A stretch of 64,000 nt of DNA from Nitrosopumilus sp. (lineage in GTDB: Archaea > Thermoproteota > Nitrososphaeria > Nitrososphaerales > Nitrosopumilaceae). The position numbers were made by a program, and so were the translations under genes. This document shows positions 19,313 through 38,480 of the stretch, piece after piece. The stretch lies in assembly GCA_965197525.1 (NCBI GenBank), contig OZ240211.1, positions 896,001 to 960,000 of the forward strand, written 5' to 3'. Positions within the stretch are counted from its first letter, which is position 1, and every line of letters begins with the position of its first letter. Under the pieces are notes generated by a model. That model was given only the letters and a program-made list of their open reading frames with translations. It made no database searches and had not been told where the DNA came from.

Positions 19313-20813
19313 TAGAACTTATGAGCAATCCCAAAATATAAGAAAAAAAAACTCCAGTCACAAAGTCAAAAATAATAAAAATATTCCATACAACGCATCA
19401 TCAAGACGACATTCTCATATGTTTGATATTTTCATTATGCCATGCCTGAAATTCATGCGCAGACGTGTAGCACTGCAATGTGCACTGAACTAACTATGTA
19501 GCGGTATCTTGACTGGTGGCAACATTTGTCTTATCCCAGTCTATTACCGGTCTTGGATTATCATTCACAGGCGGTCCCTTCTCCATCTTATCCCACAAGA
19601 GCTCCAGGTTTACAAGTCCGGTTATGATGTTAAATTCATTATTAAATTCACTGACTGTTCCATTGTATGGGGCAACAAGTCTACCGTATCGTTTTAGCCT
19701 GCCAATACTGTGCTCTACCTTTACCCTGATGGAATTGACGTTGTGGTTTTCTTTTTTCTCTTTTGGTGTAAAATGTCTATGATTCTTGCTTCTCTTGTGT
19801 GGTTGTTGGGTAATTGTGCCTGGCAGTTCCTTTTCAATTCCCTTGTACCCCAGGTCCGTAAAGAGATGAACACGATCCTCATCAGGGATATCCTCACTGC
19901 ACATCTTCTCCCACCATATTCCAAATGGCAGTGGACTACTCTCTCTGAGTAATGTAATGTCGCGGATGGATCCCAAAGTGCTCTTTGATGCAGCCACAAT
20001 GACTCCGTTATCATTTATGCATACAGTGGTGTTAAACGTAAACTTTTTCTTTTTTCCAGAATATGTTATGCTTCTCATCTGGTTGTTACTAGGTCTATTC
20101 ACAGGACAATGAGTACCGTCAACCATGGCGATACCTCCATCAGGTCCGGGCATTATTTTTTTAAACTCTTCTTTTGTTTTTGCATTTGCTATATCTTTTG
20201 AAATGTTGCTGGCTGTAGGTAGCACTATACTCAACATAGAATCCATGATTTTGATGTATCGTGATACTGCAGCTTGATCCACTCCAAATAATGTAGCAAG
20301 GGATCCCTGTGTGGGATTGCCTTTTTTGTATATCAACGCCATGAGTAGTGCGTGTCTGAGATACAGCTTGCAGTGATTCCCTGCATCAGATGACCTGTCA
20401 TCATTATCTCTGAACAAGAGGGATTTGTTGTCTTGTTTCATGCATAGTGTTGCCACCATGCACCGAGTAGAGGTGTTCGATGAGATTATCAATAATGATG
20501 CAAAGATTCATGATGCCACATTAACGGATGTGGCCAAGTTCCAGTACCTGCTTGCCAGGGCAGCCTGCCCTGCAACTCCTGATTCAGAACCATTCCGAGT
20601 ATTCCAGAGATCTCGTTCGTGTCTGATGATCTCTTCCTGACGCTTGTTTTTTTCTCTAAGAATTTTAATCTCTTTTTGTAAACGCTTTATTTCTTGTTTT
20701 GACAACAATATGACTGGTATCTTTTAATTTTAACAGGTTAAATCATAAATTTTTGACAGCAATGTTAACGCATCTATGGCCGATCTGAGAATCAGGATTA
20801 CTCATAAGTTCTA
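19313..20813 (-). mobile_element. IS5-family (DDE_Tnp_4 / ISL2-like) element
   Basis: TIRs TAGAACTTATGAGCAATCC and reverse complement of TAGAACTTATGAGTAATCC match 18/19, the terminal TA probably being the TSD. Confidence 0.85.
19494..20708 (-). pseudogene. DDE_Tnp_4-type transposase interrupted by a 104-bp internal inversion
   Basis: MVDGTHCP, YSGKKK, DLGYKG and RVKVEHSIGRLK motifs; one in-frame TGA at 20508-20510 lies inside the inverted segment. Confidence 0.85.
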
Positions 20814-21452
20814 TTGTGAGTATCTGCAGAGGTTGAGATATTTGGTAACGCCGCGTGGTGTACGTTCTTCTATTGCCGACAATATGTGTAACATTCTACT
20901 CTCCGCCTAATCTCTCTCTCTCTCTCCCCACAACAGCATTCTTCAGACTAGCTAAAACTATAGTCAATATTGCAGTCAGAGAGGAGTTTGAGAATTGGAT
21001 GTCACGTATACAGAATCTGTTTTTATTGTTCTTGGAAATGTACTTGTCAGTATTGTTACTATTGTTATTATTAATATAATTTGCCATTATTTGGGGCTGT
21101 TAAGTTCATGGTAGATAATTCTTGCTGTTAAGGGTCGGTAGATGATTGTGATTTAGACACCACGTGTAGAATTTTGGATGGTATTATATCATCCTCGTTC
21201 TCATACTCGTATACTGTATCCAGAGTATCTGTAAAACCAGCGGTTCTTTCTGTTCTGACCATAACAATCATCATTATCCATAGTATTCTTTTAACTTTTC
21301 TAATACAGGGTTCTGTTAACTTATCGTCGCTTAATTCTTCCTGTTAACTGTCGAGGGGTGAGTGTTCTGTCGGTTCTGTCTAATAATGGGGATATGGAAT
21401 AGATGTCAGGGGTTAAACCCTGTTGTTAATTGTCAGTAGTTTTATGGTGATT

Positions 21453-22634
21453 TCATAGTTCTGTCTTACCCTTACCGAACTTCATGCCCTCTGCAACCAG
21501 CACGGCATTAAGTTCAGTCATGGTAAGCTTTCCGCCCTTCCGTCTGTTGCAGTTACCACAAAGTAGTTGAAGGTTTTTGTCATCATCCTGACCACCCTTT
21601 GCTTTTGGTATGATGTGATCTACCTCCAAATCCTTGAATAGATAATGGTATTTACAACCGTTGCAGTACCCATGTTGGATTCCGTATAACGTATGCTTGA
21701 CATCCTTGGATCGCCTACCCTTTCTTTTTGGTATATCCGTTCTTTGTATAACTTGTCCTGCGCTAGTAATGAACTTGGCAATTCCTGCATCTTTCTTGAG
21801 TCTTTGTTCAATCAACGAATAGGCTCTTTCTGATATATCGCACCCTATCCATTTTCTGCCCTGTTTCTCTGCTGCAAGACAATCTGTGGCACAGCCACAA
21901 AAGGGGTCAAACACCATTCCACCAGTGTAACTGCTGGCTTTTATGATTCGTTCCAAAAGTGCAAGTGGTTTTTGCGTATGGTGGCCAAGCCTTTCTGAAC
22001 CCTTGACACCAGATATGTCAGTCCAGATGTTCTACAAAGGCAGTCCCTTTGCATCATCAAGATATATCTTATAACGTGGAAGTCCACCTTTTTTCTTTGG
22101 GTAATGCAACATATCATTTTTTTCTAACTCCAACATAGATTCTAACGCTCTCTTCCAGATTCTCATATGCCCCTTGTATTCATACTCGTACCCTCCGCCT
22201 GACAGACTTTTAGCAGTTAATTGTTCATGGCTATAATATCCACGATCATCCTTGTTCTTGAAATTTTTCTTTTTGTATTCCTCCGAGTATGGAAGATAGA
22301 CATCATTCCATGTGTAGTCTCTGGTCTTGGAGTAAAACAGTATCTGGTCAGAAATCTTCCCGTATCTCTTGCTGTCATTGTGAGAACTGGTTCGTTTCCA
22401 CGTTATGTCGTTTCGGAATGATTCCGCACCAAATATTGAATCCAGTACCAGCTTGAGATAATGGCTCATTGTGGTGTCGCAGTGCAGGTACAACGAACCT
22501 GTTGATTTTAGAATTCTATGCATCTCCAAAATCCTAATTGCCATGTATATCAGATACGACATTGTAGATTTTCCTCCTACTTTGCCAGCAGTTCCTATAA
22601 TCGAATACAAGGATTCGTTGATCTCTGCAATCTC
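21453..22634 (-). pseudogene. 5'-truncated, nonsense-mutated copy of the DNA MTase-HNH gene
   Basis: Homologous to 24403-25830; lacks the DPPF motif region; CAG>TAG at 22032-22034; both ORF pieces are in the same frame. Confidence 0.9.
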
Positions 22635-22748
22635 GGTGCACTCAAAGGACAAACTCCAGCAGAATCAGCTAAAATCACGGTTGGCGGAATAAATCGTTGG
22701 AAAACAATTATAGAAAACGCTTCATTGCACAAGCAAAATTCAGTCTAA
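22635..22748 (+). pseudogene. 3' tail of a second IS6-family transposase
   Basis: GALKGQTPAESAKITVGGINRWKTIIENAS matches QSLDGDTPADRAGIRVKGDNKWKTIIQNAS of the intact enzyme; fused directly to the MTase breakpoint. Confidence 0.8.
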
Positions 22749-22756
22749 TAGAATTG

Positions 22757-22828
22757 TGATGGTAGTGGGAATTGAACCCACGTCGTATGGGTCGGAATCC
22801 ATACATCATACCACTAGACCATACAACC
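22757..22828 (-). tRNA. atypical tRNA-like gene or pseudo-tRNA (anticodon ambiguous, TCC or CCG)
   Basis: Cloverleaf GGTTGTA-TG-GTCTAGTGGTATGAT-G-TATGG[ATTCCGAC]CCATA-CGAC-GTGGG[TTCAATT]CCCAC-TACCATC-A; 8-nt anticodon loop; one U.C mismatch and one G.U pair in the acceptor stem. Confidence 0.75.
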
Positions 22829-22981
22829 AAAAATAAATTGCCTCCTGCTTTCCGACGAACTGTGCCCAGTCCAACAGGAGGTATGCTTATTCTAATCGGG
22901 TAAACCGACAGAACACACACAACAAGCTTGTAACATCATAATATTATATACCATATATAAGAATATTATTAGCCTAAAGAT

Positions 22982-23007
22982 TCAGCACCCGAAGATTACA
23001 CAGAACC
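22982..23007. repeat. IS6-type TIR (right-end orientation)
   Basis: TCAGCACCCGAAGATTACACAGAACC is the perfect reverse complement of 24321-24346. Confidence 0.9.
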
Positions 23008-23049
23008 TTCGATCGCAATCATTTTATATAACTATTCTAATACTTAGTA

Positions 23050-23637
23050 ATGACTTTTAAAATAATAAAAACAATACTGTTTACATCTTTGATTACTGCA
23101 ATGATTCTTCCATTTGGAATGGATTATGCATTTGCAGATCATCCAGACACAGATGTATGGAGCACTGATAGAGAATTTGATATTCAATCATCATTGAATA
23201 ACATATCTCATGCAAGTTTTACACCAGCTACAGATTTTGAAGACGCTGCAGACGTATGGAACTCTGTGAGTAATTCGTGGTGGGACTTTACAAGAGATGA
23301 TTCAAGTAATGATGTAGAAATTGGTGCATGGTTTATGGGTTGGCATATATCCACATTAGCTGAAACCACATGGTATGACAGTGGGGGTTACATGTTATGG
23401 GCTTTTATCGATTTTAACAGTGCTAAAGATTTTAGAGATGTAAATGTATCTCAAGGATGGATGTCTTATGACTATGAAACTGTTGCCATCCATGAAATCG
23501 GACATGTTGCTGGTATCCATGATCATACAACAACATCAAGCTCACCTATGATAGCTTCAATTTCAGTCAATACTGTAGATAGAACATTGAACAGCCATGA
23601 TAAAGCAACAATTAGGGGGATGTATCAAGATGAATAA
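23050..23637 (+). CDS. secreted metzincin (matrixin-like) zinc protease
   Basis: Signal peptide; HEIGHVAGIHDH (HExxHxxGxxH) followed by an SPM Met-turn. Confidence 0.85.
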   Translation: MTFKIIKTILFTSLITAMILPFGMDYAFADHPDTDVWSTDREFDIQSSLNNISHASFTPATDFEDAADVWNSVSNSWWDFTRDDSSNDVEIGAWFMGWHISTLAETTWYDSGGYMLWAFIDFNSAKDFRDVNVSQGWMSYDYETVAIHEIGHVAGIHDHTTTSSSPMIASISVNTVDRTLNSHDKATIRGMYQDE

Positions 23638-24199
23638 AAAACTATTACTACCTCTTTTGGTACTTGTGGTAATTCCTGTTCTTGTATTTAGTCAACCAGA
23701 TGCTGATACAATAGGGAAACAATTTGCAGTTGATAACCCAGGTATATCTATTGGTGTTAGTACTTTAGAAGAGGCTTTAACAGAAGAGCAAGAGATCAAC
23801 AGAGCATCTCTTATTGTTGAAGGAACTATACTAGAAGCCAAACCATACTGGAAGATTATCCATAATGATAAACCACCTAGAATTTACACCGAATTTACTG
23901 TTAAAGTAGATGATGTCATCAAAGGTGATATAAATTCTCAAACTATCACATTTGTAGTGGGTGGTGGTGATTTAGATGGAATAATTTCTAGAACAGAGTC
24001 AGTAGATCTAACTGTGGGAGAACAAGTAATTTTATTACTTGGAAAAGACATCTATAGTATATTTGGGGACACATACAACCCAATATCTATCTCAAAATCT
24101 ATTTACAAAATTGAAGATGGTCAAGCAATAAACAAACTAGATGATAGAACAGGCAACAAAGACGACGTAAAAGAGAGAATATCTGATCTATTAAGATAG
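23630..24199 (+). CDS. secreted or anchored partner protein of the protease
   Basis: ATG 23630 overlaps the protease stop; N-terminal hydrophobic helix; ASLIVEGTILE...IYTEFTVKVDDVIKG. Confidence 0.7.
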   Translation: MNKKLLLPLLVLVVIPVLVFSQPDADTIGKQFAVDNPGISIGVSTLEEALTEEQEINRASLIVEGTILEAKPYWKIIHNDKPPRIYTEFTVKVDDVIKGDINSQTITFVVGGGDLDGIISRTESVDLTVGEQVILLLGKDIYSIFGDTYNPISISKSIYKIEDGQAINKLDDRTGNKDDVKERISDLLR

Positions 24200-24320
24200 A
24201 TACCCTTATCTTTTTTTTATGAATATTAGTTAAAGAATTATAAAATAACATCATATGTCATAAATTGTGCGAATTGACTGCTGCAGGAATTGTGGGAAGT
24301 TATTAAAAGTGTTGGAATAT

Positions 24321-24346
24321 GGTTCTGTGTAATCTTCGGGTGCTGA
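24321..24346. repeat. IS6-type TIR (left-end orientation)
   Basis: GGTTCTGTGTAATCTTCGGGTGCTGA, perfect inverted partner of 22982-23007. Confidence 0.9.
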
Positions 24347-24402
24347 GATTATGAGTTCTGTTAACTTGACGGGATCTAACTCTTTCTGGTAAGTGTCAGG
24401 AG

Positions 24403-25830
24403 CTAGGATCCAGAACGCCCCTTGCCGAACTTCATGCCCTCTGCAACTAGCACGGCATTAAGTTCAGTCATGGTAAGCTTTCCGCCCTTCCGTCTGTTGC
24501 AGTTACCACAAAGTAGTTGAAGGTTTTTGTCATCATCCTGACCACCCTTTGCTTTTGGTATGATGTGATCTACCTCCAAATCCTTGAATAGATAATGGTA
24601 TTTACAACCGTTGCAGTACCCATGTTGAATACCGTATAGCGTATGCTTGATGTCCTTGGATCGCCTGCCTTTTCTTTTTGGTATATCCGTTCTTTGTATG
24701 ACTTGTCCTGCACCAGTAATGAACTTGGCAATACCTGCATCTTTCTTGAGTCTTTGTTCAATCAGCGAATAGGCTCTTTCTGATATATCGCACCCTATCC
24801 ATTGTCTACCCAATCTCTCTGCCGCAAGACAAGCTGTTGCACATCCACAAAACGGATCAAACACGATTTCTCCTACGTTACTGCTTGTCTCAATGATGCG
24901 CTCCAGTAATGCCAGTGGTTTTTGCGTGGGATAACCAAGTCTTTCCTGACCTCGAACATTTGGAATATCAGTCCAGATGTTCTGTAGTGGTACACCTTTA
25001 GCATCTTTCAGGTATATCTTGCGACGAGGCAGTCCACCCTTCTTCTTTGGATAGTGTATCATGTCGTTCCTTTCCAACCCTAGCATAGATTCTAACGGTC
25101 GTTCCCATGTCCTTATGTGTCCCTTATACTCATACTCATATCCCCCAGCCGATAAGTTCTCGGCAGTCAATTTCTCGTGACTGTAACGTCCACGCCCGTC
25201 CTCATTCTTGAAATTCTTCTTGGTGTATTCTTCCGAGTACGGCAGATATACATCATTCCATGTGTAGTCTCTGGTCTTGGAGTAAAACAGTATCTGGTCA
25301 GAAATCTTCCCATATCTCTTGCCGTCATTGTGAGAACTGGTTCGTTTCCACGTTATGTCGTTTCGGAATGATGCTCCACCAAATATTGAATCCAGTACCA
25401 GCTTGAGATAATGACTCATTGTGGTATCGCAGTGCAGGTACAACGAACCCGTTGATTTTAGAATTCTGTGCATCTCCAAAATCCTAATTGCCATGTATAT
25501 CAGATACGACATTGTAGATTTTCCTCCTACTTTGCCAGCAGTTCCTATAATCGAATACAAGGATTCGTTGATCTCTGCAATCTCACCCCACCATGCAACA
25601 TCCACATCACTAAGTGTCCATGTGTCCTTAAACTCGACACCTGCTGCCTTTGATCCTATTGGTGCAGCATAATTGTGTTTGGAATTGAACGGAGGATCAA
25701 GATAAATCAAATCTACACCTTCATCTTCCATACCTCTCATAACAGGCAGATTATCGGCTGTGAAGATAGTTCGATTTTTAATGGTCAAAATGACCACCTT
25801 GAATAACATGATTTGATTTGATTGCTTCAA
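24403..25830 (-). CDS. amino-DNA methyltransferase (N6/N4 family) fused to a C-terminal HNH endonuclease
   Basis: IYLDPPFNS (motif IV), YPTQKP and FDPFCGCAT (motif I), beta-class order; C-terminal CNGC...DHIIPKAKGG..NLQLLCGNCNRRK HNH; true start may be TTG 25788. Confidence 0.92.
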   Translation of the reverse strand: MKQSNQIMLFKVVILTIKNRTIFTADNLPVMRGMEDEGVDLIYLDPPFNSKHNYAAPIGSKAAGVEFKDTWTLSDVDVAWWGEIAEINESLYSIIGTAGKVGGKSTMSYLIYMAIRILEMHRILKSTGSLYLHCDTTMSHYLKLVLDSIFGGASFRNDITWKRTSSHNDGKRYGKISDQILFYSKTRDYTWNDVYLPYSEEYTKKNFKNEDGRGRYSHEKLTAENLSAGGYEYEYKGHIRTWERPLESMLGLERNDMIHYPKKKGGLPRRKIYLKDAKGVPLQNIWTDIPNVRGQERLGYPTQKPLALLERIIETSSNVGEIVFDPFCGCATACLAAERLGRQWIGCDISERAYSLIEQRLKKDAGIAKFITGAGQVIQRTDIPKRKGRRSKDIKHTLYGIQHGYCNGCKYHYLFKDLEVDHIIPKAKGGQDDDKNLQLLCGNCNRRKGGKLTMTELNAVLVAEGMKFGKGRSGS

Positions 25831-25862
25831 AAATATTATTGGAAGGAAGTACCCCTATTGTG

Positions 25863-26224
25863 GGTTCTTGGTTCTTGGTTCTTGGTTCTTGGTTCTTGGT
25901 TCTTGGTTCTTGGTTCTTGGTTCTTGGTTCTTGGTTCTTGGTTCTTGGTTCTTGGTTCTTGGTTCTTGGTTCTTGGTTCTTGGTTCTTGGTTCTTGGTTC
26001 TTGGTTCTTGGTTCTTGGTTCTTGGTTCTTGGTTCTTGGTTCTTGGTTCTTGGTTCTTGGTTCTTGGTTCTTGGTTCTTGGTTCTTGGTTCTTGGTTCTT
26101 GGTTCTTGGTTCTTGGTTCTTGGTTCTTGGTTCTTGGTTCTTGGTTCTTGGTTCTTGGTTCTTGGTTCTTGGTTCTTGGTTCTTGGTTCTTGGTTCTTGG
26201 TTCTTGGTTCTTGGTTCTTGGTTC
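25863..26224. repeat. perfect heptanucleotide tandem repeat (GGTTCTT)x51 plus GGTTC
   Basis: 357 bp / 7 = 51 identical units, read directly. Confidence 0.97.
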
Positions 26225-26230
26225 ATATCA

Positions 26231-26395
26231 TCACATACTCGGTTTTAGAATCAGTTTGTTTCCAATGATTTTAGCTTCCAATTCCTGTCCTTTGTTCCAC
26301 TCCAGTTTTTTTACTTCTTCCTTTGAAAGATTGATGTACCATCTTCGATATTCCTTGTCACCTACACGTCTGTTTATCTTGTCTTGTAACTTCAT
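26231..26395 (-). CDS. AbrB/MazE-like (swapped-hairpin) DNA-binding protein
   Basis: Hand translation MKLQDKINRRVGDKEYRRWYINLSKEEVKKLEWNKGQELEAKIIGNKLILKPSM (54 aa); below the ORF-track cutoff. Confidence 0.7.
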   Translation of the reverse strand: MKLQDKINRRVGDKEYRRWYINLSKEEVKKLEWNKGQELEAKIIGNKLILKPSM

Positions 26396-26409
26396 ATCTT
26401 TTAATTATA

Positions 26410-26474
26410 TAGACCCCTAATAAACAAATCGGTTTATTTGTAGGGGTCTAAACATTTATATTATTAGGGGTCTA
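26410..26474. promoter_or_regulatory. putative operator: three TAGGGGTCTA boxes
   Basis: TAGACCCCTA (26410), TAGGGGTCTA (26441, 26465); 14-bp perfect inverted repeat 26410-26423 / 26461-26474 between the divergent AbrB-like and transposase genes. Confidence 0.6.
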
Positions 26475-26603
26475 ATACTATTGTATGAAAAGAACTGCAA
26501 TGATGAAAAAAGAATCAAAGGGTATGGGACACCCAATGATGAGATTGTTACGATCTGAGTACTCTTTTCTGTCCCACTTTATAATTTTTGAGGTGTCGTA
26601 CCT

Positions 26604-27728
26604 ATGAACGCAAGACAGGCAAGAGGTCAAACCATTGTAGAAAAACAGGGTCAGATCAGAAGAATAAACGACACACAATACGAGATCAAAAGCCAAAACA
26701 GTGATTCTCTATACGATGTGGTTGGCACTGAGTTTGGATGGTCGTGTTCATGTCCCGATCATCAGTTCCGTAAGGTTTGCTGTAAACATATCCATGCAGT
26801 CGAAATATCAATCAAGATACATCAAAAGGTGTATGATGATGTGGTAATTTCAGAAGTTACCATTGACACGTGCAAATACTGCAAATCGGCAAACATAACC
26901 AAGATGGGAGTACGTCACAACAAAAATTATGACGTTCAGATGTTTAGTTGCAAAGACTGTAACAGAAAGTTTTCAATCAATTTGGGATTTGAGAAGATGA
27001 GGGCTACACCAGACCAAATCACAATGGCTATGAACCTGTACTTTAACGGTGAATCCACAAGAAAGACTGCACAGTCGTTGTTACTCACTGGAATCAAGGT
27101 ATCAAACGTCACCATACACAACTGGATAAAGAAATACGTTGATCTTATGGATAGGTATTTGGAAAAGATTACACCTCAAGTGGGTGAATCATGGAGGACT
27201 GATGAGATGTATTTGAAGATCAAGGGTGACAAAAAATACATGTTTGCCATGTTAGATTCTGAGACTAGATTTTGGTTGGCACAGATGGTCTCAGAACACA
27301 AGGGGAATGATGATGTATCGCCAATGTTCAAACAGGCTAAATGCACTGCCAACAAAGTGCCATCAACCCTAATATCTGACGGAGCTGCAAACTTTCATCA
27401 TGCTTGGAAAGAACAATACAAGGCAAAGAATTTCTTACACAAGGACACAGAACACGTAAGGCACATACATCTTGCAGGCGATATGAACAACAACCAAATG
27501 GAATCCTTTAACGGTAATACCATGAGGTTGCGTGAGAGTGCTACAAGAGGAATCAAAAAAGATGATTCTGTCATATTCAAGGGTATGCAAATCCATCACA
27601 ACTTTGTCAGACCTCATCAAAGTTTAGATGGTGATACTCCAGCAGACAGGGCCGGTATCAGGGTTAAAGGTGACAACAAATGGAAAACCATAATTCAGAA
27701 CGCTTCAATGGTACCTACCAACCCTTAA
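26604..27728 (+). CDS. IS6-family DDE transposase with N-terminal SWIM and Zn-ribbon domains
   Basis: CSCPDH...CKHI SWIM; CKYC...CKDC; WRTDEMYLKIKG, LISDGA, NNQMESFNG catalytic segments; stop lies inside the right TIR. Confidence 0.9.
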   Translation: MNARQARGQTIVEKQGQIRRINDTQYEIKSQNSDSLYDVVGTEFGWSCSCPDHQFRKVCCKHIHAVEISIKIHQKVYDDVVISEVTIDTCKYCKSANITKMGVRHNKNYDVQMFSCKDCNRKFSINLGFEKMRATPDQITMAMNLYFNGESTRKTAQSLLLTGIKVSNVTIHNWIKKYVDLMDRYLEKITPQVGESWRTDEMYLKIKGDKKYMFAMLDSETRFWLAQMVSEHKGNDDVSPMFKQAKCTANKVPSTLISDGAANFHHAWKEQYKAKNFLHKDTEHVRHIHLAGDMNNNQMESFNGNTMRLRESATRGIKKDDSVIFKGMQIHHNFVRPHQSLDGDTPADRAGIRVKGDNKWKTIIQNASMVPTNP

Positions 27729-28007
27729 CAGCAAGAATTACCTACCGTGAACTTAACAGCCCCCATTATTTTTTACCATTATTTTGTAGACAACGATACG
27801 GTAATTGACCGGAGGTTTCTTTATCGTATTTTTGACAACTTGAAGTTTTACCAAGCACATTGTCTTGATTGGGATCAGTAACAACACTACTTGAAAGAAT
27901 TACAAAAGTCACATTCAGTATTAAAAACAACCATCATATAACAAAGAGGTCATCTAAACTAGTCTTAGACCGATAATAATATACATGATTAACGGTGAAA
28001 TCTTGAT

Positions 28008-38480
<10,473 letters not shown>

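Follow-up and report, generated by a model that had tools for sequence, protein, structure and literature searches.

Here we examine a long heptanucleotide repeat array, and the methylase-nuclease gene that follows it, in the archaeon Nitrosopumilus sp. (NCBI GenBank assembly GCA_965197525.1). Both lie in the window, by which we mean the whole stretch of 64,000 nucleotides that was analysed (contig OZ240211.1, positions 896,001 to 960,000 of the forward strand), and coordinates are counted from its first letter unless stated otherwise. The genome is a single contig of 2,210,164 bp with 39.6% G+C, is 99%-complete and encodes an archaeal AmoA. On the minus strand, the stop codon of a small open reading frame (ORF; TGA 26233-26231) is followed by the nucleotides TGAT, an ATG, the array, a 75-nt spacer and the gene, which we call MTase-HNH after its methyltransferase (MTase) and HNH domains (Table 1). 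A first reading of the sequence, here called the original prediction, proposed that the array forms part of a leader ORF and that the number of its units could gate translation of MTase-HNH, as a three-state switch.

Table 1. Features of the array locus and of the transposon around it (positions in the window; Shine-Dalgarno sequence abbreviated SD; n is the number of repeat units).
Feature	Position	Strand	Description
Perfect heptanucleotide array	25863..26224	-	(AACCAAG)x51.7 on the mRNA strand, GGTTCTT on the + strand
Leader ORF, present state	25855..26226	-	ATG 26226, 123 codons, (NQEPRTK)n, stop TAG 25857-25855
Alternative leader stop TAA, n mod 3 = 2	25836..25838	-	37 nt upstream of the hairpin
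Alternative leader stop TAA, n mod 3 = 1	25778..25780	-	first base is the last base of the hairpin 3' arm
8-bp hairpin GGUGGUCA-UUU-UGACCAUU	25780..25798	-	encloses SD AGGUG 25799-25795 and UUG 25788-25786
MTase-HNH	24403..25788	-	intact, 461 aa from TTG 25788; beta-class N4/N6 methyltransferase with C-terminal HNH
Small ORF, 54 aa	26231..26395	-	weakly SpoVT/AbrB-like
IS6-family-like DDE transposase	26604..27728	+	divergent; N-terminal SWIM/zinc domain
6.7-kb transposon carrying the locus	21085..27771	.	terminal inverted repeats and 8-bp duplication
Decayed MTase-HNH paralogue	21453..22652	-	lacks the N-terminal 67 residues; in-frame TAG; no leader or repeat

Tandem Repeats Finder describes the array as 51.7 copies of a period of 7 with 100% matches and no indels, and together with the ORF listing this bears out the predicted (GGTTCTT)x51 inside a leader ORF. 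Read along the minus strand, the leader ATG (26226-26224) is followed by (AACCAAG)x51 at 26223-25867 and then by a partial AACC. The mRNA strand of the array is without any T, and all six frames through it are free of stop codons. In a whole-genome scan it is by far the longest simple sequence repeat (SSR), the next non-triplet ones being T27, A19 and tetranucleotides of five units, and the exact three-unit AACCAAG pattern has no second occurrence in the genome. The only long non-triplet microsatellite in 2.2 Mb is thus found directly before MTase-HNH, which is the sole intact one of three copies of this gene in the genome. Recognised mismatch repair seems to be absent, as the MutS_V and NucS_C domains have no match in the 99%-complete genome, and slippage in the array would therefore go uncorrected.

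Between the small-gene stop and the leader ATG there are 4 nt, and not 5 nt as first given. Close spacing of this kind is shared by five related loci whose upstream small genes are of three unrelated sorts (before the homologues, a Zn-ribbon gene or another ORF of 56 aa): the next leader or MTase ATG is at most 4 nt away from the small-gene stop. Having a start codon and an open frame through the array, the leader is positioned for translation, in the same sense as the pil1 leader described below. The three stop positions predicted for 49-53 units are reproduced exactly by a simulation of 45-57 units. When n is divisible by three, which includes the present 51 units, the leader ends at the TAG 56 nt before the hairpin listed in Table 1, and when n mod 3 = 2 it runs on to the first of the two TAA codons. 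When n mod 3 = 1, the leader tail reads ...IGVLPSNNIFEAIKSNHVIQGGHFDH and its stop overlaps the MTase start TTG 25788 by 11 nt, which confirms the overlap proposed for 49 or 52 units. No frame leads to a fusion of the leader with the MTase, since stops are met in all three, before or just past the MTase start. With 51 units the leader shares the MTase frame and a single TAG stands between them; read-through or recoding of this TAG was considered as a way to fuse the two, and nothing was found in its support.

The MTase-HNH protein matches PF01555 with an E value of 5e-44 and the HNH family PF01844 with an E value of 1e-13. In the PF01555 part, a DPPF motif precedes an FxGxG-like motif I, matching the beta class, and relatives in the PDB are MboIIA, CcrM and EcoP15I Mod. 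The DPPF and FCGC motifs and the His/Asn/Cys residues of HNH are invariant across 20 homologues, and judged by this alignment the catalytic motifs are intact. A protein from another assembly (P0001, on a contig of 15,645 nt) is 100% identical over about 430 N-terminal residues and then diverges, without an HNH domain.

The N-termini of the homologues typically read M-x-x-IKNRTIF and thus correspond to TTG 25788 as the start of the MTase, in line with the original assignment. Furthermore, AAGGTGGTCATTTTGACC, which holds both the SD sequence and the TTG, recurs in the congeners G007 (L025) and G131 (L351), and the 3' end of the 16S rRNA, GGATCACCTCCT, is complementary to AGGUG(G)UC upstream of this start. 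Genome-wide, SD-like pentamers peak at -17 to -11 and TATA-like hexamers at -31 to -26 before the ATGs of long ORFs, which means that SD-led and leaderless starts both exist in this genome. Another option considered was therefore a leaderless start at ATG 25809 with a TATA box of its own, a start that is implied by a 468-aa cluster member (P0122) on the contig of this genome. With a home-made position matrix trained on the TATA boxes of the genome itself, the AT-rich box at 25840 reaches no more than 3.5, and the ATG is not conserved in frame in G007 or G131; this start is less likely than TTG 25788.

The hairpin over the MTase start has a calculated folding energy of -8.6 kcal/mol (z-score -3.3) in the window, -11.2 kcal/mol (z -4.1) in G007 and -11.4 kcal/mol (z -3.4) in G131. 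All 8 pairs are kept in the two congeners despite five substitutions, including one double change from U-A to C-G. This conservation is suggestive and not conclusive, since there are three sequences in total and the 3' arm is coding. The hairpin is followed by AAAAAU and not by the U-run of an intrinsic terminator, and as it holds the SD and the UUG, the control would be translational. Upstream of the SD, the alignment of the leader regions of the window, G007 and G131 is unreliable, and a shared CCACAAT..TAG and neighbouring (TCTG)n mini-repeats are to be regarded as unproven. A scan of positions 20000-28500 against Rfam gave no known RNA family apart from a tRNA-like gene.

On the basis of these features and of the comparisons given below, the array most likely acts as a random expression switch. 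The specific mechanism that we favour, and to which we assign a rough probability of 45%, is a frame switch via the start-sequestering hairpin, with one ON frame and two low frames. For the more general statement that the tract modulates expression in some way, the balance of the evidence is moderately favourable. In the favoured mechanism, the array would be a hypermutable microsatellite in the translated leader of an operon, which would comprise the small gene, the leader and MTase-HNH, transcribed together, and would be borne by an IS6-type transposon of an ammonia-oxidising archaeon. Replication slippage in vivo would add or remove 7-nt units, each change shifting the frame of the leader, while the SD and UUG of MTase-HNH itself would be locked in the conserved hairpin of 8 bp. 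When n mod 3 is 0 or 2, the ribosomes on the leader would stop 56 or 37 nt short of the hairpin, the start would stay closed and expression would be basal; the current 51 copies would correspond to this low state. When n mod 3 is 1, the ribosomes would cross the hairpin and come to a halt at the foot of its 3' arm, 8 nt beyond the first UUG base; this would open the start, allow termination-reinitiation and give high expression. Methylation and restriction might change along with it.

In Haloferax volcanii and E. coli, a distance of about 20 nt from the upstream stop almost abolishes termination-reinitiation (PMC10666635). This loss of coupling fits a low state for the two frames that end early and a coupled state for the third. 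The evidence points to two functional states, one ON and two low, and not to three distinct ones. Of the three-state switch originally suggested, the frame-gated leader is supported by the geometry of stops and hairpin and by the SSRs of the homologues, while the three separate states are not.

A leader switch of similar construction is known from the pil1 locus of Streptococcus gallolyticus, in which a (GCAGA)n repeat lies in a leader-peptide gene. The short peptide ends 39 bp before a hairpin, giving the low state. With longer peptides, which end in or beyond this hairpin, the ribosome melts it and the state is high (Danne et al. 2014, PMC3894217). The window locus resembles pil1 in having an SSR within a leader ORF upstream of the regulated gene, in the placing of the short-leader stops a few tens of nucleotides before a hairpin (37 or 56 nt, compared to the 39 bp of pil1), and in a frameshifted long leader that stops in or at the hairpin, in the present case at its last base. 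There are also clear differences. The pil1 hairpin is a transcription terminator, whereas the one in the window lacks a U-run and contains the SD together with the start codon. The unit has 5 nt and 22 copies in pil1, as against 7 nt and 51 copies here, and pil1 is bacterial and concerns a pilus, whereas the window locus is archaeal and concerns a methylase-nuclease on a transposon.

We now turn to the homologues, whose SSRs are, as far as sequence comparison can tell, the strongest support for the switch. A survey of a sample of 400 genomes of the class gave 25 further archaeal loci, and SSRs were sought from -250 to +40 around the conserved N-terminus. A non-triplet SSR is present at this 5' position in 10 of the 25 loci, with a density of 1.38 per kb; over the remaining 82 kb of these loci the density is 0.036 per kb, and the enrichment is about 38-fold. 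The repeats differ in kind. G/C tracts are found as C12, C10, C9, G11, G12, C11, G11 and G8. In the congener G111 (L371, contig 18), eight or more copies of CCAGTTC give way to a stretch of about 130 N, some 45 nt ahead of the conserved N-terminus of a homologue with 41% identity, and in G323 (L375) a 13-nt repeat, (GGTCGAGACGCCA)x9, runs directly into the N-terminus of the homologue. As assembled, some tracts are in frame with an upstream ATG (G286 and G323) and others are not, and ON and OFF states are both present among the homologue assemblies. Such a variety of repeats at one position in diverged genes is predicted by recurrent selection for switchability and not by neutral slippage.

Similar tracts are seen closer to the window locus and also outside the archaea. 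In paralogue copy 3 of the same genome (genome positions 701.3-703.0 kb), an ATG 4 nt after a small ORF is followed by a G8 run; this ATG and the core of the gene differ in frame by one base, and a G9 run would fuse them. The small ORF in front of copy 3 has no similarity to that of the window. At homologue loci of congeners, G169 has a C12 run (out of frame), G105 an interrupted G5TGGCGG and G031 a C11 run; among bacterial homologues, a C12 run occurs in a member of the Tepidiformaceae and a G7 run in a Rhodobacter.

A number of points weigh against the frame switch. The array is present in none of 150 congeners; no (AACCAAG)x3 turned up when 100 congeners were searched by pattern, and a DNA search with the flank after the array in all 151 genomes of the genus gave matches solely to the SD/TTG region of G007 and G131. 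Most homologues carry their tract within an N-terminal extension of the MTase, and the reading as a leader ORF draws on the window locus and two decayed relatives. A few units suffice for switching frames, so the number of 51 is not explained by it. The overlap of 11 nt is outside the -4/-1 class for which coupling has been tested experimentally. A short hairpin may fail to block initiation, and its 3' arm being coding, protein constraint could account for part of its conservation. Finally, the weak TATA-like AT-rich box at 25840 could drive a separate MTase transcript that starts near ATG 25809.

The alternative that survives best, although we consider it unlikely, is neutrality. The microsatellite would have expanded unchecked in a dispensable leader of a mobile element, the genome lacking mismatch repair; it would regulate nothing, and MTase-HNH would be expressed from its own SD/TTG or promoter regardless of the copy number. 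The large excess of units, the restriction of the array to this one congener, the missing MutS and NucS matches and the leader that is not fused to the MTase in any frame would all be in keeping with such a scenario. The same is true of the occurrence of the unit elsewhere. Scans for AACCAAG, with thresholds of at least four units for metagenome contigs and at least three for viral contigs, showed arrays in at least 120 of the former and at least 119 of the latter (L109-L347), the longest among the matches listed having 18 copies, and the unit is accordingly not special to the MTase-HNH locus. Among the listed contigs, none encodes a close relative of MTase-HNH. Their short arrays are mostly within long ORFs in the NQEPRTK sense (125 vs 19), and the long ones, of up to 18 units, are intergenic and often beside degenerate or inverted heptamer runs (e.g. 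L160 and L274). Being unrelated coding or intergenic sequences, they are uninformative about copy-number variation at the MTase-HNH locus. What speaks against neutrality is that independent SSRs of differing kinds occupy the same 5' position in the homologue survey at the enrichment given above, and that the one long non-triplet microsatellite of the genome is placed exactly before the one intact paralogue.

In another scenario, to which we give still less credence, the array is a rheostat whose length acts independently of frame, by setting the distance between a promoter or operator and the MTase, or through mRNA stability or processivity, a longer tract leading to lower expression. Using the matrix introduced above, the TATA scores are 9.5 at 26588, upstream of the small gene, and 7.8 at 26408, while the 75-nt spacer before the MTase contains no good promoter, its best score being 3.5. 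These values weakly favour co-transcription through the array, and they also place the array between the best promoter candidate, with the TAGGGGTCTA boxes described below, and the MTase, which would suit a rheostat. A T5 run in the spacer (25833-25829) could, as a speculation, add a polarity effect. A precedent for a rheostat is provided by the promoter-region heptamers of hmw1A/hmw2A in H. influenzae, which are cited in PMC4525171 and give graded expression by tract length, independent of frame, with less expression from longer tracts. The window array is like these heptamers in lying upstream of the regulated gene and outside its ORF, and unlike them in lying within an ORF that has frame-specific stops. 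A rheostat would give the great length of the tract a meaning of its own. On the other hand, the leader ATG is tight against the upstream stop and all three frames are open through the array, which suggests translation of the array; that the stops are placed as they are with respect to the hairpin would have to be coincidental; and the tracts of the homologues are frame-setting.

That the array, or its length, is an artefact of assembly is very improbable. Long perfect repeats are commonly mis-sized, and the heptamer tract of the congener in L371 ends in a run of N. Against this, the genome is one contig of 2.21 Mb with unique flanks on either side of the array, the related records are chromosome-level metagenome-assembled genomes, and a perfect in-register array bounded by an ATG is not expected of an artefact. 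Least credible of all are a stand-alone repeat protein, (NQEPRTK)17 or (LGSWFLV)n from the other strand, as the six open frames and the NQEPRTK-sense ORFs of short arrays elsewhere might suggest, and a set of decoy sites resembling insertion sequence (IS) ends for the transposase, given that the first 6 nt of GGTTCTT are also those of the inner inverted-repeat tip GGTTCTGT: no family match exists for the leader peptide, a heptamer open in one frame is necessarily open in all, the plus-strand ORFs are antisense to the small gene, and the decoy match covers 6 of at least 26 IS-end bases.

Slippage-driven phase variation is textbook biology of bacterial pathogens, and the frame switch can be compared with several bacterial systems in addition to pil1. 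To our knowledge, the established SSR-switched methyltransferases are all bacterial. One of them is the Type III mod gene M.Eco131I of STEC (Shiga toxin-producing E. coli), which carries CAGCGAC[26] (Atack et al. 2018, PMC5909438). As in such mod genes, by which regulons are controlled through methylation (phasevarions), a beta-class Mod-like N6/N4 methyltransferase is preceded in the window by a long SSR, and homologues in relatives have G/C tracts within the ORF, with ON and OFF states among the genomes. Unlike them, the window gene is a single-chain MTase-HNH fusion and not a Mod plus a Res, and its tract is outside the MTase ORF, an in-ORF tract being found in paralogue copy 3 and several homologues. 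In neuO of E. coli K1, which is located on the prophage CUS-3, an (AAGACTC)n repeat in the 5' coding region has 3-53 copies in complete genomes and is ON, giving the full-length protein, when n is divisible by 3 (PMC13001214). The window array shares with neuO the 7-nt unit just after an ATG, the location on a mobile element, a similar copy range and, in the proposed mechanism, the decisive role of n mod 3. The difference is that the neuO repeat is within the enzyme ORF, whereas in the window the repeat ORF is cut off from the enzyme by stops in all three frames.

Read as a switch, the window locus is an archaeal form, borne on a transposon, of a mechanism that has so far been demonstrated solely in bacteria. 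A survey from 2010 covers short homopolymers in 18 archaeal genomes in a statistical treatment alone (PMC2831843), a 2025 review names the distribution of archaeal phase variation and surveys of it as future work (PMC11868660), and our literature search for methylases switched by an SSR in archaea brought up nothing specific. The locus offers a concrete and testable candidate for archaeal phase variation with family-wide comparative support.

The MTase-HNH gene is patchy in the genus, being present in 4 of 36 and 7 of 83 genomes sampled. A search of 185,579 species-representative genomes gave 588 confirmed loci of the family, and the best 80 of these 588 (L029-L108) are mostly from sponge-associated or sponge-typical lineages of many phyla, including Poribacteria, Porisulfidus, Dehalococcoidia, Caldilineaceae, Latescibacterota and Nitrosopumilus. 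This distribution suggests that the family may have spread horizontally within the sponge habitat. As a tentative generalisation, which we hold with less than even confidence, sponge-associated Nitrosopumilaceae would possess a whole family of methylase-nuclease genes that switch stochastically, with a separate 5' repeat (G/C run, heptamer or 13-mer) gating each of them, and the window locus would be the transposon-borne, translational version with leader ORF and hairpin. If true, this would provide archaea with their first contingency locus or phasevarion, and methylome and restriction would be heterogeneous within a symbiont population. Our results also suggest that mobile methylase-nuclease genes common to the sponge microbiome are kept switchable, which would bear on phage defence, on barriers to horizontal gene transfer and on epigenetic heterogeneity in uncultured symbionts.

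The transposon that carries the locus has terminal inverted repeats of 54 nt with 91% complementarity (21088-21141 and 27715-27768), and the 8-bp duplication CATTATTT is found at both flanks. An IS6 element would have an IS6-type transposase, inverted-repeat tips of the form GG..CTGT and an 8-bp target duplication. Inverted repeats and a duplication are present, the transposase matches NF033587 with 106 bits, below the cut-off of 125 bits, and the size of 6.7 kb and the cargo are atypical, so that the element may or may not belong to the IS6 family. The upstream small ORF had been called AbrB-like; a match to PF04014 does exist (E 0.0032), and with 17.8 bits it is under the cut-off of 24.7.

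Some smaller observations concern the interior of the transposon. An inner perfect inverted repeat of 26 nt (24321-24346 and 22982-23007) begins with GGTTCTGT, whose first six bases, GGTTCT, are the start of the GGTTCTT unit. The match may be a coincidence or the seed of the array, and is too short to build on. The tRNA-like gene (22757-22828) scores 48.6 bits with the Rfam tRNA model, and ARAGORN assigns it no anticodon (four-base 'tccg'). Between the small gene and the start of the transposase, at 26400-26470, TAGGGGTCTA boxes are repeated, one pair of them forming an inverted repeat; the best TATA-like sites of both strands are nearby, and the region may be a shared operator.

Runs of at least 8 G or C are rare, numbering 22 in the 2.2 Mb of the genome. 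Their lengths are bimodal, with none of 9 and 18 of 10-14, and they look like a set of contingency tracts. A C11 run in the window (28148-28158) is located about 47 codons into an ORF of 3490 aa (28008-38480), just past a hydrophobic N-terminal segment.

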